Shown here one piece after another: positions 20,133 through 49,369 of a stretch of DNA of 64,000 bases. Numbering within the stretch: position 1 is the first letter of the stretch; each line of letters begins with the position of its first letter. The notes under the pieces were generated by a model. It saw nothing but the letters and a program-made list of their open reading frames with translations. It made no database searches and was not told the origin of the DNA. The DNA lies in assembly GCA_012839385.1 (NCBI GenBank), contig DUNL01000107.1, forward strand, positions 1,593 to 65,592, read 5' to 3'. Source of the stretch: Clostridiaceae bacterium (GTDB lineage Bacteria; Bacillota; Clostridia; Saccharofermentanales; DTU023). The position numbers and the translations under genes are program-made.

Positions 20133-20221
20133 TTTTAACTCCGCGGCAATGATGATCCAAGTATAGCATTCAGGGTGTTTTGTGTGCTAATCTGGATAGG
20201 CGCGAAGAACAAGGAGAATAT

Positions 20222-21551: not shown

Positions 21552-21608
21552 TTTCGCTTAGCTATCGCGTAAGAAAATCAATCTAGAAACAGAGGTTTAT
21601 CAATAAAG

Positions 21609-23087: not shown

Positions 23088-23141
23088 CCTTGCGAAAAAA
23101 TACAACCTGTCTGGGTAGGAAAAAATTTTAAGGAGTAATTT

Positions 23142-24122
23142 ATGTTAAGTAGAGGAAGAAGACTTCGTCACAATCAACTTATCCGAGACCTAAACCGCGA
23201 AACACGCATTAGCGCTAAATCATTAATTTTTCCGCTCTTTGTTGAACATGGAACGGGCATGTCGAATCCCTTGGAGACAATGCCGGGCCAAAGCCGCTAT
23301 ACAGTAGACAAGTTAGGTCCCGTAGTGAATTCACTTTTAGAGGCGGGTGTTAACAAATTTATTCTCTTCGGCGTCCCCGAACACAAAGACCTGGAGGGTA
23401 GTGACGCCTGGTCTGACCAAGGCATCATTCAACAAGCCATGCGCCGGATCAGACAAGAATTTGGTCATGAAGTCTATCTGATCGGAGATGTTTGTATGTG
23501 CGAATATACTTCCCACGGCCATTGCGGTATTTTGGACGGAGAATATATCGACAATGATAAGACACTAGAATATCTAGGTCGTATTGCCGTGGCCCAAGCC
23601 GAGGCGGGAGCTGATATGGTAGGTCCTTCCGGCATGATGGATGGACAGGTGGCAGCAATTAGAAGGGCTCTTGACGAACGCGACTTCTTAGAGGTCGGCA
23701 TCATGAGTTATGCCGTAAAATACGCCTCCGGCTTTTATGGCCCCTTCCGTGAGGCAGTTGACAGCGCGCCTTCTTTCGGAGATAGGAGAAGCTACCAGAT
23801 GGATATGCATAACAAGCGAGAAGCTCTTCGTGAAGCCAAGCAAGATGAGGCAGAGGGAGCGGATATCCTTATTGTAAAGCCTGCTCTCAGTTATCTGGAT
23901 ATCATCTCAGCGGTAAAGGCAAACACGCTCCTACCTGTCTGCGCCTACAATGTCTCGGGGGAATATTCCATGATAGAGGCCGCCGCGGCCAAAGGCTATA
24001 TAGAAAAAGAAAGAGTGATTGACGAAGTCGCGGTCAGTTGTTTTCGGGCCGGAGCTCAAATGCTAATTAGTTATCACGCGGCGGAAATCGCCACAGCGAT
24101 ACGGGCCGGGAGAATCGGTTAG
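23142..24122 (+). CDS. hemB: Porphobilinogen synthase (Zn-type)
   Basis: 326 aa. Cys-rich Zn site DVCMCEYTSHGHCG and Schiff-base lysine contexts (ILIVKPAL). Confidence 0.95.
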   Translation: MLSRGRRLRHNQLIRDLNRETRISAKSLIFPLFVEHGTGMSNPLETMPGQSRYTVDKLGPVVNSLLEAGVNKFILFGVPEHKDLEGSDAWSDQGIIQQAMRRIRQEFGHEVYLIGDVCMCEYTSHGHCGILDGEYIDNDKTLEYLGRIAVAQAEAGADMVGPSGMMDGQVAAIRRALDERDFLEVGIMSYAVKYASGFYGPFREAVDSAPSFGDRRSYQMDMHNKREALREAKQDEAEGADILIVKPALSYLDIISAVKANTLLPVCAYNVSGEYSMIEAAAAKGYIEKERVIDEVAVSCFRAGAQMLISYHAAEIATAIRAGRIG

Positions 24123-33853: not shown

Positions 33854-34591
33854 TTAACTAGCCTGGAAAAGGTCGGATACGACGGAGATAAGAACGGCAA
33901 CCGGTAGAGCCGGTAGAAAATTCGCTACTCTAATTTTAGTCTTCCACAGCATATTTATGCCGATACAGCAAATCATTAATGAACCAACAAAAGATAAGTT
34001 AAAGATTATGATATCGCTCAAATACGGTTCTATCATACCCGCCAGAAGCGTAATTGTTCCTTGGTACAGAGCCATGGGCAAAGCCGCGAACAGCACTCCG
34101 GCTCCATGGCCGGAGGCTAAGATCATGCAGATAATACCATCAAGGGCTGATTTGGCATAGAGCATGGAAGGGTCACGCGCGAGCGCGTCTTGAATCGGCC
34201 CCACTATAGCCATTGCCCCGACACAGATTATTACTGTTGTAGTCACAAAACCCTCAACAAACCTGCTATCTTCATCTCGGGCTTTTGCTAGAGATTTTAG
34301 GCGCTCTCCGACAGAGTTCAAACGAGCTTCCAGTCGCCACCATTCGCCCAAAAGAGCGCCTAAAACCAAACTAGCGATCATCAAGAGAGTATTGTCAGTC
34401 TCGAGTATATTGGCATTTACTTTAAGCAGACCTCGTAAGCCGCCGGCTATTCCTACAAAAAGTACTGATAGACCTAATGCTTGTAGGAGAATTTCTTGAA
34501 AACGAGCCTTCAGACCATGTTTAATTAAGAGGCCTGCTCCGCCACCAATTATTACGGCTATAGTATTAACAATAGTACCTAAACCTACCAA
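33854..34591 (-). CDS. DUF554-family membrane protein
   Basis: 245 aa. The GLGTIVNTIAVIIGGGAGLL start and multi-TM layout are typical of DUF554. It begins 17 nt downstream of hyuB. Confidence 0.7.
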   Translation of the reverse strand: MVGLGTIVNTIAVIIGGGAGLLIKHGLKARFQEILLQALGLSVLFVGIAGGLRGLLKVNANILETDNTLLMIASLVLGALLGEWWRLEARLNSVGERLKSLAKARDEDSRFVEGFVTTTVIICVGAMAIVGPIQDALARDPSMLYAKSALDGIICMILASGHGAGVLFAALPMALYQGTITLLAGMIEPYLSDIIIFNLSFVGSLMICCIGINMLWKTKIRVANFLPALPVAVLISVVSDLFQAS

Positions 34592-34608
34592 GTCTTCTAC
34601 ATGCCTAT

Positions 34609-36384
34609 CTACTCAGACTTTATACTAATACGATCCGCGCTTTCACTGATGAGATTTAATTCCTCATCAAGATTGACCCCGTAATCATCTGCTGCTTGTT
34701 GCCTGCTAATATAGCCGTTTTTAACATCAGAAATTACAGATTCCACCGGTCGAAGCAAAGGATTTCCGTAACCACCGCCCGTACTGGTAACCATGCGAAC
34801 ATAATCACCCTTGTTCAAAACTTTACGGGCAACTATACCGAATGGACCTTCTTTAGTACCGTCAGCTCTAAAAATCTCAAAATAATTGTTTGATCCCGCG
34901 GCGCCCTCGTTCATCCCCCAAACCGGGAACTTGTTGCGTCCAAATGAGGCTGTAAACAGTTGACCGTCAGTCATAGCTCTATAAATTCTAACCGCGCCGC
35001 TACCACCTCGGAATTCACCACTGCCGGCACCATCCGTATTGAGACTATATTCATCAATCATAATTCCGTAACGTCTCTCGGCCATCTCGACAGGGACATT
35101 ATAGGTCTCCCCGTCACCAACACAGAATTGACCTACTTCTCCATCCTTACCGAGACTTGCGCCCCAACCACCCCCAGTAGGTTCGACTATTAGGAACTGC
35201 TGATCATTAAGATGATGCTGTCCCGACATGACGACAGAACATACGGACAACATATGTCCTGCCCCGAGGGCCTCGGGGAACACCGGCGCCAGCGCGTGCC
35301 AAACCGTATCGATAGCATAGATCATGCTCTCAAAATAGCAAGAAGTGGGGGCAGGTCTGGTGCATTGTAAGACTGAGCCCGGTTCAGAGATGATCTTCAT
35401 CGGTTTAAACACGCCATCGTTAACGTCCAATTCCGGATTAAGGATTGCCATATAAACTACTTTAACAGCCGCTTCTAAAGAACTGGTACCTGTATTGATA
35501 GGACTTTTTACCTGGGGACTGCTACCGGTAAAATCAGCGATAAATTCATCTTCAGTGATTGTTACCTTGACCTTGATCTTGACCGGATTGCCGTGTCCAT
35601 CATCGTCCATAAAATCTTCCGCTTCCCAACTGCCCTTCGGAAATTCCTTAATTCTCTGGCGCGCGAGTTGCTCGCCTTGCTCAAGCAGTCTGCGCATTGA
35701 TAGCAACAGTGTTTCGACCCCATATTTGTCAGCCAGGTCAATCAGTCTGCGCTCACCCGTACGGAGGGAAGCAATTTGTCCCCACATATCCCCGTTAGCC
35801 GCTTCCGGGAATCTGACATTGGATTGAATTATGCCTTGCAATTGAGGATTAAGCTTTCCTTTTTCAACCAATTTGAGACCGGAAAAGCATATGCCTTCTT
35901 GGAAAACCTCGGTGCTATCGGTCGTAAACGAGCCGGCCGCCATACCGCCGACATCTCCCCAGTGCGCTTTATTGCCGACAAAGGCAATCAGGCGTTCGCC
36001 ATAAAAAACAGGCATGGCCATACCTATATCAGATAAATGAGAGCCACCTCCCATATAGGGGTCATTGATGATGAACACATCACCGGGATACATATTCTCT
36101 TTGCCATATTTAGCGATCAGTTCTTTAATCAATGGCGAGATCAGACCAATAAAGCCGCAAGCTCCGTTACCTTGGGTTAGGAGATTGCCGTCGGCATCCG
36201 CGATGCCGCTGGCGTAGTCAAGTGTTTCATATATAATCGGACTCATGGATGTACGCGCGAAAGCGTGAAAAACTTCATTACCGACCGCTATTAAAGCGTC
36301 TTTGGCAATATCCAAAGTTACTTTATCAATTTCAGGCGTGACTTCTTTATCAATTGTATTAACTTCATTGTTTTGGGTGGCCAT
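34609..36384 (-). CDS. hyuB: Hydantoinase B / oxoprolinase family subunit
   Basis: 591 aa with HyuB-like sequence throughout (DPYMGGSHLSDI, GGGWGA). The start lies 1 nt after the hyuA stop. Confidence 0.9.
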   Translation of the reverse strand: MATQNNEVNTIDKEVTPEIDKVTLDIAKDALIAVGNEVFHAFARTSMSPIIYETLDYASGIADADGNLLTQGNGACGFIGLISPLIKELIAKYGKENMYPGDVFIINDPYMGGGSHLSDIGMAMPVFYGERLIAFVGNKAHWGDVGGMAAGSFTTDSTEVFQEGICFSGLKLVEKGKLNPQLQGIIQSNVRFPEAANGDMWGQIASLRTGERRLIDLADKYGVETLLLSMRRLLEQGEQLARQRIKEFPKGSWEAEDFMDDDGHGNPVKIKVKVTITEDEFIADFTGSSPQVKSPINTGTSSLEAAVKVVYMAILNPELDVNDGVFKPMKIISEPGSVLQCTRPAPTSCYFESMIYAIDTVWHALAPVFPEALGAGHMLSVCSVVMSGQHHLNDQQFLIVEPTGGGWGASLGKDGEVGQFCVGDGETYNVPVEMAERRYGIMIDEYSLNTDGAGSGEFRGGSGAVRIYRAMTDGQLFTASFGRNKFPVWGMNEGAAGSNNYFEIFRADGTKEGPFGIVARKVLNKGDYVRMVTSTGGGYGNPLLRPVESVISDVKNGYISRQQAADDYGVNLDEELNLISESADRISIKSE

Positions 36385-36385
36385 A

Positions 36386-38431
36386 TTATTTTACCCCCGT
36401 TTCTATAATCAAATGACCATATTCATCAACGGTCAGCTCTTGTTCGGGCAACACCACTGTTGTAGCTGTTTTTTCATCAATAAGCAAAGGACCGGTTCCT
36501 GTGAAACCTGCTTTTAAATCCGAACGCTCATAAACCGGAGTTGTTCTCCACTTGCCATCATCGTATAGTACATCGCGCTCGCCTACAGGTTCTATTATTT
36601 CATGGCCCAACACAGGTATTTTAGATAGTTCAGGTTTAGTCAGAACGCCTAACGCTATAAGATGGAAGTTTACAATCTCTACGGGCGTTCCGTCTAGTCT
36701 ATAGGTATAGAAATGCTCGTGATTGCGGTGGAAAGATTCAATCAGTCCGTCACCTGTATTATCGTCCCAGTTGCCCGCGGTTGTGTTGACAGGAACTGTA
36801 TGTTCTTGTCCCTGATAGCGCATATCCAGCATAGCTTGATAGATGATCTCTTTATCACTCAAACCCTCTTCATGCATACGCTCATATGCTTTTTCTTTCA
36901 GCTCGTCCCAAATAGCGTTGATATCCGTAGCCGCGGTTGTCTCCAAAGGACAGATATGGGTTCTGATCCAATCATGCCTGATGTCTGTCATCAACATGCC
37001 CCAGGCGGAAAAAACTGCCGCGGAGTTGGGAACAATAACACGATGAGCCATCAGATCACGCGCCAGAGCGGCGCTATGCATAGGTCCACCCCCACCATGA
37101 GCTACCATTACGAACTCTCTGGGGTCATAACCTCGCCGTACCGAAATTAGTTTCAGCGCGTTGACCATATTGGCCTCCGCGACTCTGATTATATCCAAAG
37201 CGGCCTGATCAACACTGATGCCCAAAGGCTTAGCGACCTTCTCTTCAATAGCGGCCCTGACTTTATCAAGATCTACTTCAGCTTCGAAATTGTCCGCGGA
37301 CAAGCGACCGGTAACCAGACAAGCGTCTGTAGTAGTGGGTTCAGTGCCACCAAGTCCATAAGCGACAGGGCCGGGCATAGCGCCAGCTGACTCGGGTCCT
37401 ACACGAAGTGATCCGGCAGCGTCTACATGCGCGATTGAGCCACCGCCATTACCTATTTCGACTATATCAATAACAGGTATCATCACAGGATAACCGGCAT
37501 AGCGTTCAGTACGCTCAATTCTGTACTCAGTCGTTACTCGAGCCTGACCGCGGTCAATGAGAGAGCATTTGGCAGTAGTTCCACCTATATCCATGGAAAT
37601 GATATTTTCTTCATTTACCATCTTCCCTAAAATAGCTGAGCCTAAAACCCCCGCCACCGGACCTGATTCTAAAAGATTTATCGGCGTCTGGCGCGCTTGC
37701 TCAAAGGTAGTGCTACCGCCATTTGATTGCATAACGTATTTTTTGCCGACAAAACCTTCCTTCTCCAATTTTGTCTCCAGGCGGTCAAGATATAAAGAAG
37801 CAATGGGCAGTACATAGGAATTCAGGACAACTGTAGAGGTTCTCTCGTATTCACGCCATTCTCTGGTCACTTCCGCCGACGCCGTCACGAAGATCTCAGG
37901 CCAGGCGCGCCGAACTATCTCCAACGCCTTCATCTCATGCTCGTCATTGATATAAGAATTCAGGAAACAGATGGCGATACTCTCTACTCCTTCCTGCTTA
38001 AACTTCTCTACGCAATCTAATACATCTTCTTCTACTAAAGGTTCTAACACGGAACCGTCAGTAGCTACTCTTTCTGTAACCTCTAGTCGCAAATATCGGG
38101 GAACAAAGGGACGTGGTTTCGCGAAAACCAGATTAAACAAATCCGGTCTGTTGCAACGAGCGATTTCCAGAATATCTCTAAACCCGCGGGTCGTAATCAG
38201 CGCGGTTTTAGCGCCCTTGCGCTCAGTAAGAGCATTGATTATTGTTGTTGTGCCGTGGAGGAACATCTCAATTTCATCAGCAGCCAGTCCACTTTCTTTA
38301 ATGACATTGAGCACACCGTCCTCAAAATTTGGAGGTGTCGTGTGACTCTTAAGAGTTACTACCTTACCGTCATTATCAAGTGCTACTAAATCAGTGAAAG
38401 TTCCGCCAATATCTGTTGCTACTCTTGTCAT
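36386..38431 (-). CDS. hyuA: Hydantoinase A / oxoprolinase family subunit (ATP-binding)
   Basis: 681 aa. VATDIGGTFTDLV N-terminus and DIGGTTAK ASKHA motifs. Confidence 0.9.
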   Translation of the reverse strand: MTRVATDIGGTFTDLVALDNDGKVVTLKSHTTPPNFEDGVLNVIKESGLAADEIEMFLHGTTTIINALTERKGAKTALITTRGFRDILEIARCNRPDLFNLVFAKPRPFVPRYLRLEVTERVATDGSVLEPLVEEDVLDCVEKFKQEGVESIAICFLNSYINDEHEMKALEIVRRAWPEIFVTASAEVTREWREYERTSTVVLNSYVLPIASLYLDRLETKLEKEGFVGKKYVMQSNGGSTTFEQARQTPINLLESGPVAGVLGSAILGKMVNEENIISMDIGGTTAKCSLIDRGQARVTTEYRIERTERYAGYPVMIPVIDIVEIGNGGGSIAHVDAAGSLRVGPESAGAMPGPVAYGLGGTEPTTTDACLVTGRLSADNFEAEVDLDKVRAAIEEKVAKPLGISVDQAALDIIRVAEANMVNALKLISVRRGYDPREFVMVAHGGGGPMHSAALARDLMAHRVIVPNSAAVFSAWGMLMTDIRHDWIRTHICPLETTAATDINAIWDELKEKAYERMHEEGLSDKEIIYQAMLDMRYQGQEHTVPVNTTAGNWDDNTGDGLIESFHRNHEHFYTYRLDGTPVEIVNFHLIALGVLTKPELSKIPVLGHEIIEPVGERDVLYDDGKWRTTPVYERSDLKAGFTGTGPLLIDEKTATTVVLPEQELTVDEYGHLIIETGVK

Positions 38432-38599
38432 ATTGGCCTCATTTCATTAAAAAATAATGTACGCTTAACAGTTCAGTTTGCGCATATATATAAAATATGT
38501 TAAATCAATATACTTTTCAAGTAAGAATAGTAAAATAAGACCCGCGTAAGTCCTCAGGCCGGAAGATTTACTTGTACCTTAACGAAGTCGCTAAATAAA

Positions 38600-40018
38600 T
38601 TATTTTTTATCATCAATTAAAATTGTACTGAAATAACCAAGCTCAGTATCCACCACCTCCGAGATGTCGGAAAAGATACTCTCGTCGGGCAAACCACAGT
38701 TTACTACCATGCCTGTATTTTTTGTCAGTCCTTTTTCCTTTAATAGTTCTAGCAAAGTTGACAAATCACGTGACGGTTTCATGATTACTTTGGATCCGTC
38801 TCTATCCAGAGCATCTTCCAGATTCGTATAGGCAGCGGGCAAGATCGTCAACGGCAGATCTCTGCTCGTAAGGCTGCGTCCCAATTTTGCCGCCGCGGCG
38901 CTGTAACTTGTTATGCCGGGTACTATATAGGCTTCAACTCCGGCCAATTTCAATAACGGGTAGAGATAGTGAACAGTGGAAAAAGTACTGGCGTCACCTA
39001 AATTTAGCATGGCGACATCTTGTTCTAAATCCAGTACGTCTAACAGTCTAAAAGTTTGAACTACATGGTTAGCCTGAGACACTTTCTTATCACGGGTCAT
39101 AGGAAAGTCAAGATAAATCAATTCTTTGTCTTTACTAGAAACAGCCTTTTCGACAATATCCAAAGCCAAAGTATTTTCGCCCATGGTTCGAGGTACCGCC
39201 CAGACAGGACATTGTTCAAGTATTCTAACTGCTTTGAGAGTTAAGAGTTCCGGATCACCCGGCCCTACTCCTACCCCATAAAAGCGACCACGCAGACAAT
39301 TTCTTACTTGTTCCGTAACCAAACGCTGGATTTCCTCATATTCACCCAAGCCTCTTGGCTCACCCTCAAGCACGTAACCTTCAGCAGACAAGGCGGAGTG
39401 AATACCGTCCTCGCCGAAAATATCATTCAAGGCGTGATCTCCGGCTACATACAATAAGGGAATCAGTTGAATCGTTCGCTCCGGAGAAAGACGTTCTTTA
39501 AGTCCGGAAATATTATTCTTACCCTCCAGAGTCGCGATTATTGTATCCTCCCCTAACAAAGCTTCCAGGCGGTCATAATTCCGATCTTGAGCATGCGCGG
39601 TACCATGGCCGATAAAAAGCCTGGTTATTCCCGGACGCGGCGGGTAAATCTCGTTCAGGGCGGAGGCGAAATCCGCTCGATCTAATTCAGTAGTAAGCAA
39701 AGGTCTACCCAGGCGAGGAAGATAATTAATATGTTTATTTATCAGGCCCAGAGCTTTTTCATATTCGAAGCCTGGTAATAGATGAGTGAAAACAAAGATA
39801 GCTTCTCTCTCTCCCAATTCAGTGAGAACTTCCGGCAGGTCAGGATAATGAATTCCTTGTTTAGACAGGGTTTTACGCACCATTTGACTAGTAAAAGCCA
39901 TATAGACAGGGTGTTCAGGAAAGCTATCATTTAGTCTTGTCATCAAGACATCATATGATAGCTTTCTGGCCGTCTCATAACTAGTACCAAAACTAACCAC
40001 CACGATTGCTTTTTTCAT
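38600..40018 (-). CDS. cbiKL: Fusion of sirohydrochlorin cobaltochelatase (CbiK) and cobalt-factor II C20-methyltransferase (CbiL)
   Basis: 472 aa. Residues 1 to about 240 are CbiK-like (AIVVVSFGTSY, THLLPGFEY). Residues about 243-472 are a tetrapyrrole methylase (FYGVGVGPGDPELLTLKA, GDASTFS). Confidence 0.88.
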   Translation of the reverse strand: MKKAIVVVSFGTSYETARKLSYDVLMTRLNDSFPEHPVYMAFTSQMVRKTLSKQGIHYPDLPEVLTELGEREAIFVFTHLLPGFEYEKALGLINKHINYLPRLGRPLLTTELDRADFASALNEIYPPRPGITRLFIGHGTAHAQDRNYDRLEALLGEDTIIATLEGKNNISGLKERLSPERTIQLIPLLYVAGDHALNDIFGEDGIHSALSAEGYVLEGEPRGLGEYEEIQRLVTEQVRNCLRGRFYGVGVGPGDPELLTLKAVRILEQCPVWAVPRTMGENTLALDIVEKAVSSKDKELIYLDFPMTRDKKVSQANHVVQTFRLLDVLDLEQDVAMLNLGDASTFSTVHYLYPLLKLAGVEAYIVPGITSYSAAAAKLGRSLTSRDLPLTILPAAYTNLEDALDRDGSKVIMKPSRDLSTLLELLKEKGLTKNTGMVVNCGLPDESIFSDISEVVDTELGYFSTILIDDKK

Positions 40019-40099
40019 TTAGCTCATCCTCCCTAGTTATTGTCTGTTCAAGTTAAAGCACTAAAATTAAGTATACTCAACGCAAGTTTCCACGCCACA

Positions 40100-40921
40100 T
40101 TATGAAAAAGCATTTAGCATTTCGGCCAATTCCTGATGAGAACGAGGAATTGAGCCCGCGGCGATTAGGCCTGCTTTTTGTAGCAATGAAGCTGTTTTAA
40201 CCAGGTCCGGCAAAACCAGATTGGCTTGCCTTAAAAGAGATTCATCTATTAAAACTTCCTCCGGCGATCCCTCTTTAATCAACATACCTTGATTCAAAAT
40301 GAATATCTTGTCGGCCAGGCGTAGGGCAAGATTAACGTCATGAGTAGCTAAAAGTAATGTCTTTCCTTCTGCTTTTAAATCCTTCAAGATTTCTTCAACA
40401 ACAGAAGCATGAAGTGGATCAAGTGATGACATCGGCTCATCAAAAATCAATAGCTCCGGTTCCATTACTAAAATACCCGCTAAAGCAACCTTTTGCTTCT
40501 CTCCACCACTGAGATAAGCGGTAGGTTGGAAGCGCAAGTCGGTCAATCCCATTTTATCTAGGATCCTGTCAATCCGCTTATTTGTTTCCGCGGGAGATAA
40601 CCCCAAATTTAACGGTCCAAAAGAAACATCTTCCTCCACTGTCGCGCCAAGAATTTGATCATCCGGATTTTGAAACAACAAGACAACTCGGGATCTCAAG
40701 GCTGACAAACTGCTATTGTTATATTTTAAGGGTTCACCACAGTAGAAGATCTCGCCCGAATCAGGCTTCAGCAAACCGTTAAGATGGAAGAACAATGTGC
40801 TTTTGCCAGCCCCGTTCTCACCTAAAATTACATGGCATTGACCTTTTTCTAAGCTTAAACTAAGTTCCTTTAATACAGGTTTTTCTTTCTCATAGGAGAA
40901 ACTTACTTTATCTAATCGCAT
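40100..40921 (-). CDS. cbiO: Cobalt ECF transporter ATPase
   Basis: Walker A GENGAGKST, signature LSGGEKQ, Walker B LLIFDEP. Start placed at ATG 40921 (MRLDKVSF), overlapping the cbiQ TGA by 1 nt. Confidence 0.88.
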   Translation of the reverse strand: MRLDKVSFSYEKEKPVLKELSLSLEKGQCHVILGENGAGKSTLFFHLNGLLKPDSGEIFYCGEPLKYNNSSLSALRSRVVLLFQNPDDQILGATVEEDVSFGPLNLGLSPAETNKRIDRILDKMGLTDLRFQPTAYLSGGEKQKVALAGILVMEPELLIFDEPMSSLDPLHASVVEEILKDLKAEGKTLLLATHDVNLALRLADKIFILNQGMLIKEGSPEEVLIDESLLRQANLVLPDLVKTASLLQKAGLIAAGSIPRSHQELAEMLNAFS

Positions 40922-41790
40922 CAAATCCAAGCCAAGACTCCTCCCAAACGCAAACCGATTACTGTTAAATAAAGCACCGCGAACAGCAAATGCCAAATTC
41001 TATGCTTGACAGGCCGTGTCAAAAATGTCAGCTTACCATTATAGCCACGGGCTAACATCCCATCATAAGACGAACGCGCTTGTTCTAAGCTTCTGCGCAT
41101 TAATTGACTCCAGATCAAACCGGTAGAACGGATGCCGTTCTTGAAAGTACTGTTACCACATCTAGACCGCGAAGCCTGTCTCATTTTTTCATACATGGTG
41201 GAAAAAATATAGACAAACTTGAGCATCAGTGTCATAAATTCAATAATTAATGCCGGTATTCGCATTTTTTGTAAAGTCTCTATCAATACAGAAAGTGGTG
41301 TCGAAAATATCAGAGCATACAAACAGGATATAGCGGCAAATACCCTTGCCGTCAGCAACCAGCCGAACTGAGTTCCGGCCTCATCTATTGACAAACTCAG
41401 TGGAGAGAAACTGAGATCATAGCGAAAAACTAACATACCGGCCAGCACAAAACTAATGGGAATAAATAGAGCCGATAAATATATTCTGAGCGGTACTTTG
41501 CCAACAAATACGGTAATAATAGCCATGCTCAAAATAACAAATATAAACAGCACCGGATCAGATTGTGATACGCAAATAATCAGCACGGTTAGGAAAAAAA
41601 GTAGTTTAGATATTCCCGGGATCTTATGGAGTGGACTTTTATAAGCATATTTGTCAATAGCCGTTATCTGATGAAAATGATCATGCACAAAAAAAGTGAG
41701 CACAAAACCGGCGATAACAATCCCGGTTTTTGTGCCCAACAGATAAAGGACTATGCCTATAAAAACAGCTTTAACAAGGCGTCTTGTCAT
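40921..41790 (-). CDS. cbiQ: Cobalt ECF transporter T component
   Basis: 289 aa polytopic membrane protein between cbiN and cbiO, with a C-terminal SRCG/ARGY-type coupling motif region. Confidence 0.82.
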   Translation of the reverse strand: MTRRLVKAVFIGIVLYLLGTKTGIVIAGFVLTFFVHDHFHQITAIDKYAYKSPLHKIPGISKLLFFLTVLIICVSQSDPVLFIFVILSMAIITVFVGKVPLRIYLSALFIPISFVLAGMLVFRYDLSFSPLSLSIDEAGTQFGWLLTARVFAAISCLYALIFSTPLSVLIETLQKMRIPALIIEFMTLMLKFVYIFSTMYEKMRQASRSRCGNSTFKNGIRSTGLIWSQLMRRSLEQARSSYDGMLARGYNGKLTFLTRPVKHRIWHLLFAVLYLTVIGLRLGGVLAWI

Positions 41791-41798
41791 AATTTAGA

Positions 41799-42104
41799 TT
41801 AAGCGCGATCAGCATCAGTTTGCGTTACGTTCTTTTTACGAGCTACCAGATAGCCAAAACCAAAACCAATTACAATCGCGCCGAGAGCTGCCTGTAACGC
41901 GAACAACAAGCTCTCCGTCTCACCCCCCGGCGGTTCCATAATATTCTCCGCCCAAGGCTCATAGTCCGGATTGATAGCTGACACTCTCTCCTCAGCCTCA
42001 CCATCGGCACCTTCAAATTCACTATCTTTAATAAGAATCAAAGGAATAACTGTTACGGCTATCGCCAAGAGAATTAGTACAATAACCAATGTTTTTCTAT
42101 TCAC
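41799..42104 (-). CDS. cbiN: Cobalt transport protein CbiN
   Basis: 101 aa with two TM helices flanking an acidic loop, overlapping cbiM by 4 nt. Confidence 0.85.
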
Positions 42105-42853
42105 GCCCTTGCCTCCTCAAAATAACCCAATCCCTTCAGTTCCGGTCGGGCATAGCTTTCAAAGCCGATAATTACTATAACCGTTATCAATCCTTCAATT
42201 ATCGCGATTGGGACCTGAGTAATAGCGAAGATGCCCATAAACTCTGTGAGAGAAGCGGCAAATCCACCATTGGCAGCGGGGTGGGCCAAAGCAAGCTGGA
42301 AAGAAGTGACAACATAAGTAAGGAGATCACTCAAGGCCGTAGCTAGGAAAATGCCTACCAAGCGGTTGATTTTCAGTTTCTTAGTTAAAAGATAGACACC
42401 GACAGCGACAAAGGGACCCACAATACCCATACTAAAAGTATTTGCCCCCAGTGTAGTTAGACCCCCATGAGCTAGCAGTAAAGACTGGAATAATAGCACC
42501 AGCACACTGATAAAGGCCATGGGTAGAGCGCCAAAAAGAACTGCCCCTAGACCGGTACCGGTAGGATGAGATGAACTACCGGTCACACTGGGAATTTTTA
42601 GAGCCGATAGCACAAAGCAATAGGCCCCTGCCATAGCAAAAATAAGTAAAAGCTTTCTGTTCTCCCTAATTTTTTTGCGAATACTGAAGTAGCCGCCAAT
42701 AACGAAGGGAAGCGCGATAACACCCCAAATAACCGCATGTACTAATGGAAGATATCCTTCCATTATATGCATAGCATTTATAACCGGAGAAACGGCCAGA
42801 AACGCTGTCGTCATTAGGGCTAGACCCAGTATAAGTTTCCCTTTAGACTTCAT
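42101..42853 (-). CDS. cbiM: Cobalt ECF transporter substrate-capture component CbiM (with signal-like leader)
   Basis: 250 aa. A 27-aa leader precedes the conserved MHIMEGYLP metal-binding N-terminus. AGGAGG SD at 42860-42865. Confidence 0.92.
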
Positions 42854-42865
42854 TTAATACCTCCT

Positions 42866-42903
42866 TTAAAATAAAAACACTTCCCGCATAGTGGGAAGTG
42901 TTT
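42866..42903 (-). terminator. Expression-platform intrinsic terminator of the cobalamin riboswitch
   Basis: On the minus strand, AAACACUUCCC-ACUAUGC-GGGAAGUGUUU (11-bp stem) is followed by UUAUUUU and ends immediately before the cbiM SD. Confidence 0.8.
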
Positions 42904-42941
42904 AGCCTCCTCTATGCCTCGTAGAGCTGCTATATAACAAT

Positions 42942-43021
42942 CTGATGAGGCAGTTTTCTGGCTTAAATCACAGTGGCGGGACCGCAGAGAATTCTCATCT
43001 CATTTGCCTGCTTGTCATCAG
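42942..43021 (-). promoter_or_regulatory. Cobalamin (B12) riboswitch aptamer
   Basis: The minus-strand RNA is CUGAUGA...GAGAUGAGAAUUCUCUGCGGUCCCGCCACUGUGAUUUAAGCCAGAAAACUGCCUCAUCAG. It contains the conserved GCCACUG core, a B12-box-like AGCCAGAAAACUGCC, a GAGA/UCUC hairpin with a UGAGAAU loop, and a closing P1 CUGAUGA/UCAUCAG. Recognised by eye against the remembered RF00174 consensus. Confidence 0.82.
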
Positions 43022-43040
43022 CTAAATTGTCTATTTATGT

Positions 43041-43069
43041 ATTTTAGCACGAGTGTGTGACAAAAACAA
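43041..43069 (-). promoter_or_regulatory. Putative sigma-70-type promoter for the riboswitch-cbiM operon
   Basis: On the minus strand: TTGTTT (43069-43064), a 17-nt spacer, then an extended -10 TGCTAAAAT (43049-43041). Confidence 0.45.
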
Positions 43070-43146
43070 TTCCTGTTAACCCCGGAACATTATTGGAGTT
43101 TCATATGAATAATATTAATTCTCTAAAAGAACAACAGTCACGGTAA

Positions 43147-44592
43147 CTAGCAATTTTTTTCAGTCCAAACTGAGACTGTCCTGCCGTTTACCGTAAAATC
43201 CGCTCCACCCTTCTCGTCCAGAACTAATTGCTCCGACCGATTTCCGGTCATATCATACCAGGTCTGACCGAAACGATCGGCGCCTAATTCAATATAGACA
43301 CTGTTTTCAGCTCCAGTAGAAAGAATGCAAACCAGGCCGGAGTGTGGATATTTGAGATCACCTTCACGAACAAAGGCGATGGCATTTTTGTCGAAAAAGT
43401 AATCTTTCTCCGGTCCATAGGCCCTTTCTTTCCTAGCCAATAATAATGGTCTCAAGACATCCGCTAAGCCCTCACCTCCTGCGATACCATAGTAATCACC
43501 ATAGAAAAGGCAAGGATAGCCATCGCGACGCAGCAAAATTAAAGCATACGCCAACGGTTTGAACCAGTCCGCCACAAAAGACTCTAAAGCTTGTCCGGGC
43601 TGTGAGTCATGATTGTCAACAAAGGTAACAACATTGAGGGGATTGACTTGAACCAATGTATTGTCAAAAACTTCTCGTAAGTCGAAGGCACTACCTTCAT
43701 TAGCGGCTCTTTCAAAGTTAAAGTGCAAAGCAACATCAAACAACTGCATATGATAATGGACATTGTCCAAATATTGACGCATGCGCTCAATATCAGCAGT
43801 CCAGTATTCACCAACTACATAGATATCAGATTTTACACGCTTACGCATTTCTTCAATAAAGCCCAGCATAAATGGCTCGTCAATATGTTTGACAGCGTCC
43901 AAGCGCATACCGTCAAAATCAAAACGAGATAGATACCATTCTGCCCAGTTATAAAGCTCACGAATTACATCCGGATGCGAAGTATCAATATCCGCGTGCA
44001 TTAAATAATCATAGTTACCATATTCCGGATCAACCGCCATACCAAAGCCTTTATTTTCACCAACAATTCTAAAAACACCGGTTTGGCCTGTAGCTTGATC
44101 AAAGTCTATAGCAGCGAAATGTTCAAAAGTCCACTTAAACTGAGAGTATTTATCACCCCGGCCCGGAAAGGTAAATTTAGTCCAGCCTTCAATCTCTCTC
44201 GGCTCACCAATTTCTACAGTGCGATCTTTAGGATCAACAGGAACTGCCATGAAACGTTCCGTTTCATCAGCTCCGGCTTTGTGGTTAAGTACAACATCCG
44301 CGTAAACTCGAATGCCAGACTCGTGCATGACGGCAACTAGTTGTTGTAATTCAGTAGCTGTACCGTATTTTGTGGGAATAGTATCCTTTTGCCGGAACTC
44401 ACCAATATCGTAAAGATCGTAGGCGCTATAACCGGTATCGAATACAGATGTACCCTTATAAGCTGGAGGTAGCCAGATGCCGGTAACGCCTATTTCTTTG
44501 AGTTCGGGAGCCATGTTAATCAAACGTCGCCAATGTCTACTATCTGCCGGCAAATACCAACAAAAACCTTGAAACAAAAGTCCATTAAGCAC
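43147..44592 (-). CDS. Cytoplasmic GH13 alpha-amylase
   Basis: All four GH13 regions are present: DVVLNH, GMRLDAVKH, VGEYW, FVDNHD. No signal peptide. GTG start with an AGGAGGTG SD. Confidence 0.92.
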   Translation of the reverse strand: MLNGLLFQGFCWYLPADSRHWRRLINMAPELKEIGVTGIWLPPAYKGTSVFDTGYSAYDLYDIGEFRQKDTIPTKYGTATELQQLVAVMHESGIRVYADVVLNHKAGADETERFMAVPVDPKDRTVEIGEPREIEGWTKFTFPGRGDKYSQFKWTFEHFAAIDFDQATGQTGVFRIVGENKGFGMAVDPEYGNYDYLMHADIDTSHPDVIRELYNWAEWYLSRFDFDGMRLDAVKHIDEPFMLGFIEEMRKRVKSDIYVVGEYWTADIERMRQYLDNVHYHMQLFDVALHFNFERAANEGSAFDLREVFDNTLVQVNPLNVVTFVDNHDSQPGQALESFVADWFKPLAYALILLRRDGYPCLFYGDYYGIAGGEGLADVLRPLLLARKERAYGPEKDYFFDKNAIAFVREGDLKYPHSGLVCILSTGAENSVYIELGADRFGQTWYDMTGNRSEQLVLDEKGGADFTVNGRTVSVWTEKNC

Positions 44593-44708
44593 AAATAGTC
44601 ACCTCCTGAAACAATAAAGACAATTTAAATTGGGGACTATTGCCATTAAATTTCCCTACAATCAATTTAGCGCTACATGCTACTGCATTATAATCTGTTT
44701 CTAAAGCG

Positions 44709-47700
44709 CTAATTAAGAAGTCCTTGCGCTCTTGATAAATGCTTGTATAGAACCCGCAAAGCATAATCAATCTGCTCCGGCTTATGCGCTGAAGTAAGAC
44801 AATAGCGAAGTCTTGCCTGTCCCATCGGTACAGCGGGGAAGATAGCCGGCGGCACAATGATACCATCTTCCATCATATCGACACTGAGCTTAAAGGCAAG
44901 ATCGTCAGGTCCTATCATAATAGGCACAATAGCTGTATCTTTGGCTAAACAGGTGTCAAAACCTAACTCATGCGCTCGCTTGAGAAAATAGGCTATATTG
45001 TTTTGTAGTGCTTTGACTCTGCTGTTATCTCTAGCCATTATCTCTAATACTTTAAGGGCGGCGCCTGTCAGAGCAGGACTTAAGCCCACTGAGAAAGTAA
45101 AACCCGGCAAATTATAGCGCAGATAATCTATCAGTAATTTGTCACCTGCTAAATAACCACCACAGGTACCTAACCCTTTAGACAAAGTACCCATTTTAAT
45201 ATCGATATCGTCAGGAGCTAGCCCGAAATATTCATCAACACCTTCTCCATTTTCACCTAAAACACAAGCAGAGTGAGCTTCGTCTACCATAAGAAAGCAA
45301 CCATATTCTTTCTTGATGCGAACAAACTCAGGTACCGGAGCCACATCACCGTCCATGCTATAGGCTCCTTCAATAATTATGAGAACCTTCTCATAATCAT
45401 CCCTATGTTGTCTAAGATAATCTTCTAAGGCTTGGTAGTCGTTATGGGGGAAAAATTTACTACTGGCTCGAGAAAGCAAAATTCCCTGTATAACTGAATT
45501 ATGACTAAGCCGATCGTATATGATCAGGTCGCCTGAACCGCAAAAATTGCCGACAAATGTAACATTAGTAGCATGTCCGCTGACCAAAACCAGAGCGTCC
45601 TCTGTCCTCTTCCAGCGAGCGATTGCTGCTTCTAATTTCTTATGAATATCCTTTTCCCCGGCCAATAATCTACTACCGCTAGCTGAAGTTCCATATTTCT
45701 CTACCGCGGCGATAGCTGCAGCGTTTACTTCCGGATCTCCTGACATGGCCAGGTAATTGTACGAACCTAGATTTATCATTTCCCGCCCATTCATGTAGGA
45801 TACATCCTTGAGAGGTGATTCCTGAGCTATAAAGTAAGGATTAAACATATCGCTACTCGCTAACAACGTTTCAGAGCGTTTGGTAAACTGTTTAATTTCT
45901 CTAATCTTGTCAAAACTATCCACACGCTCTTCAGGCGATCTAACTTTCGTTTCCAGCGAAATCCTTGATTCTTTATCTCCCTTGCCGGAACCGGCTACAT
46001 GTTGGTGAATAAGTGATGTTATATCATTCAAATTCATACAACTATAGTACTCATCATCAACTATGGCGATATTGTATTCTTTCTCCAAAAGGTTGAGCAA
46101 AGTAAGGCTAGATAAACTATCACCACCCAAATCAAGAATAAAATGTCCTGTGTCGGATATTTCATCCTCTTCCAGATCTAGAGCTTCGGCAAAGAAGCCT
46201 TTGACGGTTTCTTTAATTTCACTGATAGAGAGTCCGGAGTCCGTAGTACCATGATTTTCCTGATCTGTAAGGCTGGAAGTCTTACTATGCTCTTCAGAGA
46301 TTTTAACGTCATCCTCAACTGCCTTAACATCGCTAGTTTCTATTTTTGTATCTTGCGCCGAATCATTAGCTGTTATTTGTTCCTCGATGTATTTAGATAA
46401 GGTCATAGTTGGCCAGGATCCTTGATTAATTTGTTGAGCCAGAATTTGGCGTTTAACCTTTCTGGTTGTAGATAGCGGCAGAGGTTCCAAACTAATCAAC
46501 ACATTAGAAATGGCTGAAGAAGGCGGTAATTTAACCATACGGCCTCTTAATGCCTCTTGCAATTCGATAAGATTAGCATCCGGTACCAACTCCAAAAGCA
46601 AGTTGGCATATTTATATTTGTCTGATTGGATACCAATTACCGTTAGCTCACGAACGCCGGGTAAATCTTGGAAGTTTGCTTCGACAGTATCAGGATAGAT
46701 ATTCTCGCCGGAAGGGCCGATAATAACTTCTTTAATTCTAGCGTCAATGTAAATAACATTGTTTTCTATACGACCGACATCACCTGTGCGGAACCACTCG
46801 CCACTCCTGTAATCAACAGCATGGAAGCGGCCAGACTTTAGGACACCTATATATAAACTCTCACCTCTCAGAAGAATCTCGCCTTCAGGTGAAAGCTTGA
46901 TAACTTCGGGTAATATAGCTTCACCAACGCTGCCCGTCACGCGTTCACTAACATTTTCAGTATTGCAAACTGAGACAATATTGGCCTCTGTCAAACCATA
47001 ACCCGAACTGAGATAATAGCCAAGACCATTGATTACACGCAATACATGCTCAGGAATATATCCGCCTCCGCTACAACCAAGATAGATATCATCACCAAGT
47101 AATTGTTCCCTGATTAACTTGAGTTTTTCCGCGTAATCCGGGGGGAGTTCTACGCCCGCCGCTTGTGCTTCAAGACTGCTCTCAATCATCTTTTCAAAAG
47201 CGGCCAGAGCGTCCTTGCCCTCTAACATACGAATTTTTCTATAGAGTCCCTTGACAACAGCATTCCAAAAAAGAGGAATACTGATAATCTGCGTGACTTT
47301 GTGTCGACGACAACACTCGAGAACAACTTCAGGAGCCATACCGGTAGGAAAAACCAAAGTATTACCCGCAACATGAGTTAACATAAATACAGCCATCAGT
47401 CCAAAGACATGATTAAAAGGTAGAAAAGACAAACACTTCTCAGTAAATCCGAACCGCAGCCAACGATCAGTCTTTTTTGAAAGCAGGACCAGGCCCTCTA
47501 CCATACTTAGTATGCCCGCGCTGTCATGCACGAAAACTCTGGCATCCCCGGTAGTACCGCTGGTACAAAGAGCGATCCTATCTCCCCAGACCGAATTTAA
47601 CGGGAAGTCAGAAGCTTCTTCAATCAATGAAGCTGGAGGCAAATACGAGATGTCCTCAGATAGTTGATCCGTAATCAAAGTCTCTGTTCCCGCTTGTGCC

Positions 47701-48035
47701 ATAAGCTCTATCGCGCTATCCAAATCATGTAAATAATTCAACAAAAGCAAATCATATCCTGCTGCCAAGATAGCCCAGAACAGAATGCAAAATTCGGGAC
47801 TATTCGGAAGTCTAAGCGCAATATATTTATCTTTAGAACCAACTTTCTCTCGTAATTTATGAGCGGTACCCTTGACCAAACGATCATATTCTTCATATGA
47901 AGTCTGAATCAAAATATCATCTTGATAATATTCAAAAATATGCTTATTCCGGCCATTACTGACTACGAATGCGTAGCAATCAGAAAAACTACTTGAAGTC
48001 TTAATGTTCTGAATCAACTGTTCAATTGTAAGCAT
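44709..48035 (-). CDS. Tri-domain enzyme: ANL adenylate-forming (fatty-acyl-AMP/ACP ligase-like) domain, carrier protein, and alpha-oxoamine synthase (AONS/SPT-fold PLP) domain
   Basis: 1108 aa. Adenylation motifs: TSGTTG (158-163), GYGLTE (345-350), TGD (417-419), RKVK (525-528). An acidic/Ser-Thr linker spans about 550-600. Carrier motif LDLGGDS with Ser640 (codon 46116-46118). AONS motifs: GSYNYLAMSG, SGHATN, DEAHS (918-922), TLSK with Lys953 (codon 45177-45179). Confidence 0.9.
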   Translation of the reverse strand: MLTIEQLIQNIKTSSSFSDCYAFVVSNGRNKHIFEYYQDDILIQTSYEEYDRLVKGTAHKLREKVGSKDKYIALRLPNSPEFCILFWAILAAGYDLLLLNYLHDLDSAIELMAQAGTETLITDQLSEDISYLPPASLIEEASDFPLNSVWGDRIALCTSGTTGDARVFVHDSAGILSMVEGLVLLSKKTDRWLRFGFTEKCLSFLPFNHVFGLMAVFMLTHVAGNTLVFPTGMAPEVVLECCRRHKVTQIISIPLFWNAVVKGLYRKIRMLEGKDALAAFEKMIESSLEAQAAGVELPPDYAEKLKLIREQLLGDDIYLGCSGGGYIPEHVLRVINGLGYYLSSGYGLTEANIVSVCNTENVSERVTGSVGEAILPEVIKLSPEGEILLRGESLYIGVLKSGRFHAVDYRSGEWFRTGDVGRIENNVIYIDARIKEVIIGPSGENIYPDTVEANFQDLPGVRELTVIGIQSDKYKYANLLLELVPDANLIELQEALRGRMVKLPPSSAISNVLISLEPLPLSTTRKVKRQILAQQINQGSWPTMTLSKYIEEQITANDSAQDTKIETSDVKAVEDDVKISEEHSKTSSLTDQENHGTTDSGLSISEIKETVKGFFAEALDLEEDEISDTGHFILDLGGDSLSSLTLLNLLEKEYNIAIVDDEYYSCMNLNDITSLIHQHVAGSGKGDKESRISLETKVRSPEERVDSFDKIREIKQFTKRSETLLASSDMFNPYFIAQESPLKDVSYMNGREMINLGSYNYLAMSGDPEVNAAAIAAVEKYGTSASGSRLLAGEKDIHKKLEAAIARWKRTEDALVLVSGHATNVTFVGNFCGSGDLIIYDRLSHNSVIQGILLSRASSKFFPHNDYQALEDYLRQHRDDYEKVLIIIEGAYSMDGDVAPVPEFVRIKKEYGCFLMVDEAHSACVLGENGEGVDEYFGLAPDDIDIKMGTLSKGLGTCGGYLAGDKLLIDYLRYNLPGFTFSVGLSPALTGAALKVLEIMARDNSRVKALQNNIAYFLKRAHELGFDTCLAKDTAIVPIMIGPDDLAFKLSVDMMEDGIIVPPAIFPAVPMGQARLRYCLTSAHKPEQIDYALRVLYKHLSRAQGLLN

Positions 48036-48101
48036 AAAACACCTCTAAAATTACTCTAAAGAAATTTATATATCTATCAATTTATTATTTCTTAGACATA
48101 T

Positions 48102-49130
48102 TTACTCCCGTGACAGTCCATTAATATAATCCATATGAACTTTTGACCATAGCCCCGGAGCGCCACCGGTATGAACAAAAATTACTGTATCCTCAGCGGT
48201 AGCCTCTTGTTCCAAAAAAGTCAAAAGCGCTCTGCCGGCCTTGCCGGTATAACATGGGTCCAGGATAATCGCCTCATTAGCCGCGAATTCATTAATAGCG
48301 GCAAAAGTCTTCCCATCCGGCATATTGTAGCCTATACCGCTAAAGGGAGCATCTTCCGGACCATAATCAATTTCATAATTACGAGATAATGTAAGCATGT
48401 CTTTGCTACCTATGAGTTCAATAGCAGCCTGTATAAGGTTATCGGTACGCTCTACTATATTCATCTCTCCGGGTGGGAAAACAGGAATACCTCTGATCTG
48501 AAGATTACGCATACCGAACAATTGGGCGCCCAAAGAAATTCCGGCCAAAGTACCGGCTGATCCAACAGCCACAAAGAGATGAGAAGGATCAATATTATTA
48601 GCTTTTATTTGTTCGGCGAGTTCCGCCATCATAACAATATAGCCAAGCGTGCCGAGACCATTACTTCCGCCCATGGGAATAATGAAAACTTTATGGCCCA
48701 GAGCCTCGTATTCAGACACAATTTCTTCAACATACTCTCTTTTGTTTCTAGTACCTACAAAGCGTAAATCCGCTTGCAAGAATTTGTCAAGCAACAGATT
48801 ACCGCTAAAACAATCCGGTTTTTCTCCATCCAAGACCAGAATTGATTTCAGGCCGTAAACTGTAGCGACCGCGGCAGTTAACCTACCATGATTGGTCTGA
48901 GGCCCACCAAAAGTTAGCAATGTATCCGCGCCTTCATTCAAGGCCGCGCGTAAATGGAATTCCAGCTTTCTAATCTTATTTCCACCTAACGCGATATCCG
49001 TCAGGTCATCTCTCTTAATCCAAAGCGAAGGGACAGCGTATTTTTTCCCTAAGCGCGACAATTGCTGAAACGGTGTGGGAAAATTCCCAATACGTATTCT
49101 TTGTCCCAAGACCTCCGCGTACTTACTCAT
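48102..49130 (-). CDS. ACC deaminase / D-cysteine desulfhydrase-family PLP-dependent enzyme
   Basis: Tryptophan-synthase-beta fold with the PLP-lysine motif LGGNKIRKLEF and a glycine loop region GSAGTLAG. The start is probably ATG 49130 (GGAGGT SD 5 nt upstream); the track starts at TTG 49142. Confidence 0.85.
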   Translation of the reverse strand: MSKYAEVLGQRIRIGNFPTPFQQLSRLGKKYAVPSLWIKRDDLTDIALGGNKIRKLEFHLRAALNEGADTLLTFGGPQTNHGRLTAAVATVYGLKSILVLDGEKPDCFSGNLLLDKFLQADLRFVGTRNKREYVEEIVSEYEALGHKVFIIPMGGSNGLGTLGYIVMMAELAEQIKANNIDPSHLFVAVGSAGTLAGISLGAQLFGMRNLQIRGIPVFPPGEMNIVERTDNLIQAAIELIGSKDMLTLSRNYEIDYGPEDAPFSGIGYNMPDGKTFAAINEFAANEAIILDPCYTGKAGRALLTFLEQEATAEDTVIFVHTGGAPGLWSKVHMDYINGLSRE

Positions 49131-49369
49131 CAATACCTCCAACTCCTACCTGGCTATTAATCCAAACCACAACCATCGACAAATCAATAAAACTATGGGC
49201 TACGGATCAATATTTATTTTCTAAGACTGCCAATGATTATAGCACTTATAAACGGATCAAATGAAAGCTTACTGTAAAGACAAAACACCTGCGGCTACTT
49301 GACTGAGTTATAATAACAGATAGAAAACCGGACGTCTAAAGAAGTAATTGTCAAAATGAGGGGGTAAGA

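Follow-up and report, generated by a model that had tools for sequence, protein, structure and literature searches.

The AasR–AcpR–Spt system of Rhodobacteria consists of three separate, biochemically proven proteins (CC_1165, CC_1163, and CC_1162 of Caulobacter) and yields 3-oxo-sphinganine (PMC9386255). Its activities follow the order acyl-ACP synthetase, acyl carrier protein (ACP), and condensing enzyme, the last being pyridoxal phosphate (PLP)–dependent and of the alpha-oxoamine synthase (AONS) family. The same three activities occur in the same order in one polypeptide, termed here the megaenzyme, which is encoded on a stretch of 64,000 nucleotides from an uncultured Clostridiaceae bacterium (contig DUNL01000107.1, positions 1,593 to 65,592; this whole stretch is referred to as the window). 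A sequence-only reading of the window had regarded the protein as a single-polypeptide counterpart of the separate Caulobacter acyl-ACP synthetase, ACP, and Spt, and the tridomain architecture bears this out (compare PMC9386255). The megaenzyme is an uncharacterised fusion equivalent of the AasR–AcpR–Spt system. It differs in being one protein instead of three, in the low score of its AONS domain against alpha-proteobacterial serine palmitoyltransferase (SPT; 225 bits, cutoff 670), and in its host, a Gram-positive–type anaerobe with no CerR or bCerS genes seen near the locus.

Three further systems resemble individual parts of the megaenzyme. SgaAB of Pseudomonas fluorescens MYb115 is derived from polyketide synthases (PKSs); a carrier-tethered acyl chain feeds an alpha-oxoamine synthase (AOS), which gives sphinganines (PMC12134224). 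This handover is common to SgaAB, to PKS proteins ending in ACP–AONS, and to the megaenzyme, whose carrier–AONS (T–AONS) part is 44 to 48% identical to such C termini. However, SgaA builds its chain by iterative PKS chemistry and the AOS is a separate protein, whereas the megaenzyme would take a free acid activated by an ANL domain and has no KS, AT, or KR domain. The closest solved structure and sequence is that of Thermus ThAOS (7POA/8S1Y) in the BioF/KBL group, with 36 to 37% identity and all PLP-site residues shared (phmmer E 1e-75 for 7POA, followed by human SPTLC2 with 7e-67 and Sphingobacterium multivorum SPT, SmSPT, with 5e-66). In contrast to the AONS domain of the megaenzyme, ThAOS is a protein of its own and takes acyl-CoA as substrate, and the window domain stays below the TIGR01825, bioF, and kbl cutoffs. 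SulA/CapB (7U7H; PMC9304779), from an anaerobic gut bacterium, is an AONS-fold enzyme that prefers a carrier-bound acyl donor. The match to it is weaker (E ~2e-47) than to SPT or ThAOS, and the residue that is Lys281 in SulA and Ala in Spt is Val983 in the window.

The megaenzyme is an intact and, by its predicted active sites, catalytically complete adenylation–carrier–AONS (A–T–AONS) tridomain protein. A domain scan of the 1108-aa protein recovers all three modules that the sequence-only reading had seen fused in one open reading frame (ORF): PF00501 (AMP-binding) at residues 43 to 392 (E 8.5e-32), PF00550 (PP-binding) at 610 to 675 (E 9e-11), and PF00155 (Aminotran_1_2) at 752 to 1096 (E 2e-46). 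The motif positions given in that reading are all exact on recheck. The N terminus carries TSGTTG at 158 to 163 (A3), GYGLTE at 345 to 350 (A5), TGD at 417 to 419 (A7), R433 (A8), and RKVK at 525 to 528, where K526 corresponds to the A10 lysine of FadD13; it thus holds the whole set of ANL superfamily signatures (A3, A5, A7, A8, and the A10 lysine). The carrier domain combines the PF00550 match, its helices, and the motif LDLGGDS (634–640) with an invariant Ser640, the phosphopantetheinylation of which is a prediction from sequence. In the C-terminal domain, GSYNYLAMSG (757–766), DEAHS (918–922), and TLSK (950–953) are present. Lys953 lies in register with the PLP lysine of ThAOS, SPTLC2, and SmSPT, and both the carrier serine and the PLP lysine align with the catalytic positions. 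DEAHS and the stacking His845 (in YDRLSHNS) match their counterparts in the alignment with ThAOS and SPT, and N760, H845, D918, H921, K953, and R1077 align with the catalytic set of ThAOS, SPT, and SulA. The features of the AONS family—PF00155 fold, PLP lysine, stacking His, Asp/His pair, and carboxylate-binding Arg—are therefore all found in this domain. Among 19 aligned full-length homologues, T158–T162, E350, D419, R433, K526, D639–S640–L641, D918, H921, and R1077 are invariant.

The AlphaFold2 model (mean pLDDT 77) shows three folded domains that are joined by disordered linkers at residues 558 to 600, 682 to 701, and 723 to 744. The A domain is modelled mostly at pLDDT 75 to 95, with a helical insert at 254 to 312, and the carrier domain is formed by helices 604 to 618, 640 to 654, and 669 to 680, with a disordered linker on either side. 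Such folded domains on flexible linkers fit what a swinging carrier arm needs. Foldseek superimposes the C-terminal domain on ThAOS, SmSPT, and KBL at a TM score of ~0.87; the search with the whole model is dominated by this domain, and nothing was gained from it for the A-domain pocket. In the Gly-rich loop YGTSASGSRLLAGE, which is SPT-like in the alignment, Ser788 aligns with V79 of ThAOS, which is Ala in the V79A entry 8S1Y.

With moderate confidence, we read the megaenzyme as a self-contained loading-and-condensing enzyme that gives a long-chain alpha-amino ketone of the 3-ketosphinganine type. The N-terminal ANL domain would adenylate a carboxylic acid in free form, a fatty acid being the likeliest, and load the acyl group onto the phosphopantetheine arm that Ser640 bears in the carrier domain of the same protein. 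The AONS domain, with PLP on Lys953, would then carry out a decarboxylative Claisen condensation of the tethered thioester with a small L-amino acid that is not restricted to glycine, serine or alanine being most likely, and release the long-chain alpha-amino ketone. Two observations bear indirectly on the use of serine, namely, the SPT-like Gly-rich loop and the KdsR-like short-chain dehydrogenase/reductase (SDR) genes beside relatives. In many of these relatives the adjacent SDR would turn the ketone into an amino alcohol of the sphingoid type; in the window lineage no such reductase adjoins the megaenzyme gene. Self-loading of a carboxylic, probably fatty, acid and its condensation with an amino acid had already been proposed by the sequence-only reading, and the proposal is strengthened by the complete tridomain, by the SDR, DegV, and thioesterase neighbours of relatives, and by the fatty-acyl-AMP ligase (FAAL) of planctomycete counterparts.

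Against the curated NCBIfam models, no AONS domain tested in the family, in the window or in relatives, reaches the cutoff for BioF, KBL, SPT, ALAS, or CqsA (cutoffs in bits: bioF TIGR00858, 426.45; KBL, 460; SPT models, 500–670; ALAS, 339; CqsA-type, 428). The megaenzyme scores 345 bits against bioF, its top NCBIfam AONS model (relatives 344–365), 311 against KBL, 228 against ALAS, and 149 against the CqsA-type model. For the SPT equivalogs the scores and cutoffs are 299/640 (NF047600), 269/500 (NF047599), and 225/670 (NF047603); the five relatives scored likewise miss the SPT cutoffs, with at most 326 bits. By these scores the family is a distinct AONS branch. The best solved relatives of the A domain are FadD13 and the feruloyl-, malonyl-, and o-succinylbenzoate-CoA ligases. 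The 25 best NCBIfam matches listed for it belong to FACL, MenE, and malonyl-CoA ligases and include none of the FAAL models, and its insert at 254 to 312 sits between A4 and A5, a location that we take to differ from the FAAL-specific insertion site. The sequence-only reading had left it undecided whether the architecture was already characterised; its spread is recorded below, and literature searches for a characterised A–T–AONS tridomain protein found none. A 2013 survey modelled an "AMP-binding enzyme" of Synechococcus PCC 7002 (B1XHP8) with an embedded Aminotran_1_2 domain (PMC3870968), and the protein described as "SPT" from Nostoc is BioF-like and stands alone (PMC8895605).

A word-indexed search of 5.8 billion proteins finds 19 full-length clusters at 90% identity, and an exhaustive HMMER pass over 1.84 billion representatives at 50% identity finds ~15 to 20 full-length ones. 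In the HMMER pass, the T–AONS part aligns with the C termini of many proteins of 1,400 to 2,800 aa (the 44–48% identity given above), which indicates that off-loading by a carrier protein joined to AONS is in wide use. A scan with one genome per species yields 44 distinct Clostridial-type fusions, hosted by Saccharofermentanales/Mageeibacillus, Christensenellales, and Oscillospiraceae and by many metagenome-assembled genomes from rumen and digesters; the 44 also include two Bacteroidales bins and a single isolate, Clostridium sp. 19966. The same scan yields 14 stand-alone AONS or T–AONS genes (58–62% identity) and 26 Planctomycetota proteins of ~1,150 aa, in which the N terminus is a clear FAAL. 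These FAAL–ACP–AONS loci (L060–L086 in our numbering of fetched loci, e.g. L064:6663-10103) are mostly from Pirellulaceae; their AONS domain is 45 to 49% identical to that of the window, no SDR is adjacent, and recurrent neighbours include DUF1501 and BBP7 porin-like genes. The genes lacking an A domain encode T–AONS didomains of 507 to 528 aa or a plain AONS of ~418 aa (L042, L044, and L048, e.g. L044:8004-9590), several adjoin a KdsR-like SDR, and they may represent fission or fusion intermediates in this family.

Across the Clostridial fusions, identity is ~60 to 66% in the AONS domain and ~32 to 39% in the A domain. The trees of both domains are congruent and follow taxonomy, with the window clade as sister to the other Saccharofermentanales sequences, which suggests that the two domains have long co-evolved. 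As judged from these trees, the fusion is an ancient, vertically inherited family of Clostridia. Horizontal transfer, or a compositional island, is rejected on the same congruence and on an ordinary G+C content. The lower G+C relative to the neighbouring cbi genes that had been suspected at first sight is not found (megaenzyme 0.421, PALP 0.447, cbiQ/O 0.40–0.42, cbiM/N 0.455, window 0.442; PALP is the gene preceding the megaenzyme). The idea that the A domain of the window clade is an outlier for a different acid is likewise rejected, A domains being divergent everywhere (window to others 32%, others to others 39%).

The neighbourhoods of relatives were compared by clustering the ORFs of the fetched loci, annotating the clusters, and tallying neighbours within 2 kb. 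The main recurrent neighbour is an SDR of ~273 aa, which lies near 18 of the 44 fusions and 5 of the 14 stand-alone genes, in most cases immediately upstream and in the same orientation. Among curated models it best matches Bacteroides KdsR (BT_0972; NF049977; PMC9278070), yet the SDRs score 194 to 320 bits against a cutoff of 400, and the window has no such gene. A gene for DegV, a fatty-acid–binding family, follows the fusion in five of the 44 loci, and an acyl-ACP-thioesterase–like gene is divergent from it in three, all in the sister clade. An unfused A–T didomain of 670 aa (P0021, 34% identity; L095:5780-10013) stands divergent from an MFS transporter and a PlsC-type acyltransferase, an arrangement like that of the Escherichia coli Aas/LplT system for lysophospholipid re-acylation. 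Taken together, the SDR, DegV, thioesterase, and PlsC neighbours and the planctomycete FAAL support a fatty acid as the activated acid and, for much of the family, a reduced amino alcohol (a sphingoid base) as product. Neighbour clusters 1 to 3, 5 to 10, and 21 were discarded as spurious, since by their coordinates they are antisense ORFs or overlap within the megaenzyme gene or the SDR; for clusters 10 and 21, Pfam gives no match.

In the window's clade, and only there, the megaenzyme gene is preceded by the PALP gene (6 loci: L001, L002, L034, L087, L088, and L089; megaenzyme 65–72% and PALP 61–71% identical). The pair is kept while its flanks change, with an SNase or an AI-2E transporter upstream and DUF554, a hydantoinase, or an amylase plus cbiMNQO downstream. 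In the window, PALP ends exactly 66 bp before the ATG of the megaenzyme, as the sequence-only reading had it, and its likely start is the ATG at 49130 behind a GGAGG ribosome-binding site, which replaces the TTG at 49142 chosen there. The extended -10 element noted in that reading exists as TGCTATAAT, although its hexamer lies one base off the claimed 49242-49237. Upstream of PALP, TGnTATAAT is conserved, as TGnTATAATCAT in 6/6 clade loci; the L088 counterpart scores 10/12 with the TG extension. The GAGGTG block before the megaenzyme is conserved across the six loci as well. The gap of the window has no terminator-like hairpin, no terminator is called on the coding strand in the window, L002, or L088, and Rfam reports neither a riboswitch nor another known RNA, whether in the PALP leader or in the gap. 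Hence, the proposed two-gene operon is plausible, and PALP is probably co-transcribed with the megaenzyme from the conserved promoter. In relatives, however, the gaps carry stable GC-rich hairpins (minimum free energy -28 to -45 kcal/mol), which have no Rfam match and no canonical terminator call and are missing from the 66-bp gap of the window. They could be an attenuator or an uncharacterised leader; a conserved 5' stretch (...CTGAGGAGA...) is common to those of L087 and L034.

Table 1. Coordinates of the megaenzyme, its domains, and the adjoining PALP gene and control elements (positions in the window unless a locus is given).
Feature	Position	Strand	Description
Megaenzyme ORF	44709-48035	-	1108 aa
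ANL adenylate-forming (A) domain	46365..48035	-	residues 1-557; PF00501; three-helix insert at ~254-312
Carrier-protein (T/ACP) domain	45996..46226	-	residues ~604-680; PF00550; phosphopantetheine Ser640 codon 46116-46118
AONS domain	44709..45803	-	residues ~745-1108; PF00155; PLP Lys953 codon 45177-45179
PALP gene	48102..49130	-	342 aa; fold-type II PLP enzyme of the D-cysteine desulfhydrase/CuyA/ACC-deaminase-homologue family; PF00291 E 5e-37
Intergenic gap	48036..48101	-	66 bp, A+T-rich; GAGGTG ribosome-binding site of the megaenzyme
Extended -10 promoter element TGCTATAAT	49236..49244	-	upstream of PALP; hexamer 49241-49236
Hairpin-bearing gaps of relatives	L087:9856-10000, L034:1440-1621, L002:9923-10000, L089:2655-2731, L088:9888-10000		

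Of the two labels that the sequence-only reading had joined for PALP, that of a D-cysteine desulfhydrase relative is favoured and that of an ACC deaminase falls. ACC deaminases carry a Glu after the catalytic Tyr (YEGK); PALP has YTGK and reaches 127 bits against the TIGR01274 cutoff of 392, and a true ACC deaminase is therefore rejected. The closest PDB entries are 1J0A and 4D8T, and the motifs N51/K52, QTNH, CYTGK, and HTGG are intact. With DcyD, CuyA, and Pyrococcus PH0054, PALP shares the fold, the PLP lysine, the Asn, and the QxNH, YTGK, and HTGG motifs, the Tyr of YTGK being the residue that deprotonates D-substrates (PMC11193023). It keeps Asn50, Lys51, Gln77, Asn79, His80, Tyr287, Thr288, and Thr315 of Salmonella DcyD and differs from this group in a Thr replacing Ser78 and in staying below all equivalog cutoffs (TIGR01275 251/289, CuyA 243/450, and XcbE 238/450 bits; the remaining equivalog scores, that of DcyD included, 174–188 against 429–610). 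Since the DcyD active-site residues are kept, PALP is a predicted DcyD/CuyA-type lyase for D-configured, beta-substituted amino acids and not an ACC deaminase. Neofunctionalisation is rejected, as its QTNH, CYTGK, and HTGG motifs are the same as in ~113 homologues and L195 alone is clade specific. The next-closest homologues (45–46% identity) stand in unrelated housekeeping contexts, and the functional link to the megaenzyme is thus weak; the six loci moreover represent one lineage with conserved upstream synteny. The notion of a cassette is accordingly plausible where an operon is meant and weak where a functional unit is meant, and PALP may serve as an auxiliary lyase of amino acids or may simply happen to reside there.

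Several observations weigh against the reading of the megaenzyme as a source of long-chain amino ketones. Its AONS domain is under every curated cutoff, with BioF nominally best, and the family has no characterised member. The A domain resembles short-, aryl-, and fatty-acyl-CoA ligases to a similar degree, and in its C-terminal half only; the chain length of the acid thus has to be drawn from neighbours in other clades. Within the 64 kb of the window, a homologue search finds none of the SDR, DegV, or thioesterase genes of relatives, in agreement with the earlier remark that no ketoreductase is adjacent, and there is no phosphopantetheinyl transferase among the window ORFs scanned. A bacterial sphingolipid cluster in the sense of Spt plus reductase plus ceramide synthase is therefore not present, the window being without an SDR homologue and relatives having the SDR only; no search specific for ceramide synthase was made. 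The hairpins in the gaps of relatives could attenuate read-through from PALP, and to our knowledge, Firmicutes are not established sphingolipid producers.

The lack of a reductase, N-acyltransferase, or kinase near the gene, seen in the six clade loci and in the sister Mageeibacillus group, would also suit a synthase of signals or secondary metabolites, in which the amino ketone of the window lineage, or a pyrazine formed from it by spontaneous dimerisation, is the end product and acts as a diffusible signal or bioactive compound by CqsA/LqsA-like logic instead of entering the membrane. The compact two-gene cassette with its own conserved promoter and the T–AONS modules that terminate many PKS-like proteins point the same way. 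We nevertheless consider this unlikely: few AONS models match as weakly as the CqsA-type one, inheritance of the gene is vertical and it is nested among relatives linked to an SDR, DegV, or a thioesterase, and adjacency of a reductase is not required. The nominally best bioF score raises the further thought of a biotin enzyme, whose A domain would activate pimelate in the role of BioW and whose AONS domain would be a BioF making 8-amino-7-oxononanoate. TIGR00858 is indeed the top NCBIfam model for the megaenzyme and all relatives tested (345–365 bits), and a natural BioW–BioF fusion exists (PMC9544090). Yet the bioF cutoff is missed throughout, the A domain belongs to the ANL enzymes and is not BioW, and relatives are linked to the KdsR-like SDR, DegV, and an acyl-ACP thioesterase rather than to bioA, bioD, or bioB; no bio genes occur among the window ORFs scanned or are named in the called-gene lists of relatives. 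A role in biotin synthesis is hence very improbable.

A two-enzyme pathway, in which PALP makes or edits an unusual amino acid (e.g. cysteate or another beta-substituted alanine) for the AONS domain and the product is a capnine- or sulfonolipid-like or other non-serine amino-ketone lipid, draws on the pair itself, which remains intact in six loci despite rearranged flanks and has the conserved promoter upstream of PALP, a short gap, and no terminator. The best equivalog-type matches of PALP, CuyA and XcbE, fit it too, CuyA acting on D-cysteate (PMC11193023). In addition, five AONS positions are fixed in the window clade and different in all other fusions: I714, R842, T980, I1065, and Y1078. 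Herein, R842 precedes the PLP-stacking H845 by three residues, and T980 is part of the FSVG loop, three residues ahead of V983; these substitutions are leads and not evidence of a new substrate. Against the pathway stand the single lineage of the six loci with its conserved upstream synteny, the unrelated contexts of the nearest PALP homologues outside the clade, the active-site motifs that PALP shares with 113 homologues (L195 excepted), and its scores under all curated cutoffs; CuyA and DcyD are, moreover, degradative and specific for D-isomers (PMC11193023). SulA-type use of cysteate is rejected, as the residue 30 positions after K953 is V983 (FSVG) and not a Lys as at SulA 281, and the absence of this sole published SulA determinant weakens the cysteate or sulfonolipid version. 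We regard the two-enzyme pathway as quite improbable, and the fatty-acid–loading synthase of a 3-ketosphinganine-type amino ketone stays our preferred reading.

The capacity to make sphingolipid-like molecules is now credited mainly to Bacteroidota and some Proteobacteria. A wider and doubtful extension of the preferred reading, put forward tentatively, is that anaerobic Clostridia of the Saccharofermentanales, Christensenellales, and Oscillospiraceae and of rumen and digester lineages make sphingoid-type bases by a single-polypeptide, fatty-acid–scavenging synthase and that the window lineage has coupled it with a D-cysteine-desulfhydrase–like lyase toward a non-canonical amino-ketone lipid or signal. 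If this were true, sphingolipid-like chemistry would extend to a phylum not regarded as a producer. Should the megaenzyme act as in the preferred reading, the route from free fatty acid to amino ketone in one protein would be the most compact one known to a sphingoid-type backbone. Clostridia of gut, rumen, and digesters would then be able to make sphingolipid-like molecules, with relevance to host signalling, and a CoA-independent, self-loading Claisen biocatalyst would be of interest for AOS engineering alongside ThAOS and BioWF. As a cultured carrier exists in Clostridium sp. 19966 (L009), which has a KdsR-like SDR as well as the fusion, the question is directly testable.

At the 3' end of the megaenzyme, a 93-aa ORF at 44585-44866 (-) overlaps the gene, and the source assembly calls a 59-aa gene there; it has no Pfam match, no counterpart is called at the same position in relatives, and it is probably spurious. 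In the relatives L002, L087, L088, and L089, DUF554 is the immediate downstream neighbour of the megaenzyme or follows hydantoinase A/B, whereas in the window it is ~10 kb away, with hydantoinase A/B, cbiK-L, the riboswitch–cbiMNQO operon, and an alpha-amylase in between (33854-44592). Hence, local insertions have occurred and the PALP–megaenzyme pair was never split by them. The ORFs scanned in the window are otherwise mostly cobalamin and tetrapyrrole genes. An AdoCbl (B12) riboswitch (RF01482, 56.5 bits) at 42898-43035 (-) immediately precedes the cobalt ECF transporter operon cbiM-cbiN-cbiQ-cbiO (40100-42853), and near the megaenzyme a fused CbiK–CbiL gene (chelatase plus precorrin-2 C20-methyltransferase, 472 aa) occupies 38600-40018. 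A large anaerobic cobalamin pathway extends over 11441-24122; its minus-strand genes are cbiC, cbiA, cbiET, cbiJ, cbiG, cbiF, and cbiD, and its plus-strand genes are hemC, cobA-hemD, and hemB. In two clade loci, bacterial selenocysteine insertion sequence (SECIS) elements (RF01990, 63–64 bits; L002:17586-17623 (-) and L089:9783-9820 (-)) lie beside the glycine-reductase gene grdB and mark selenoprotein genes.

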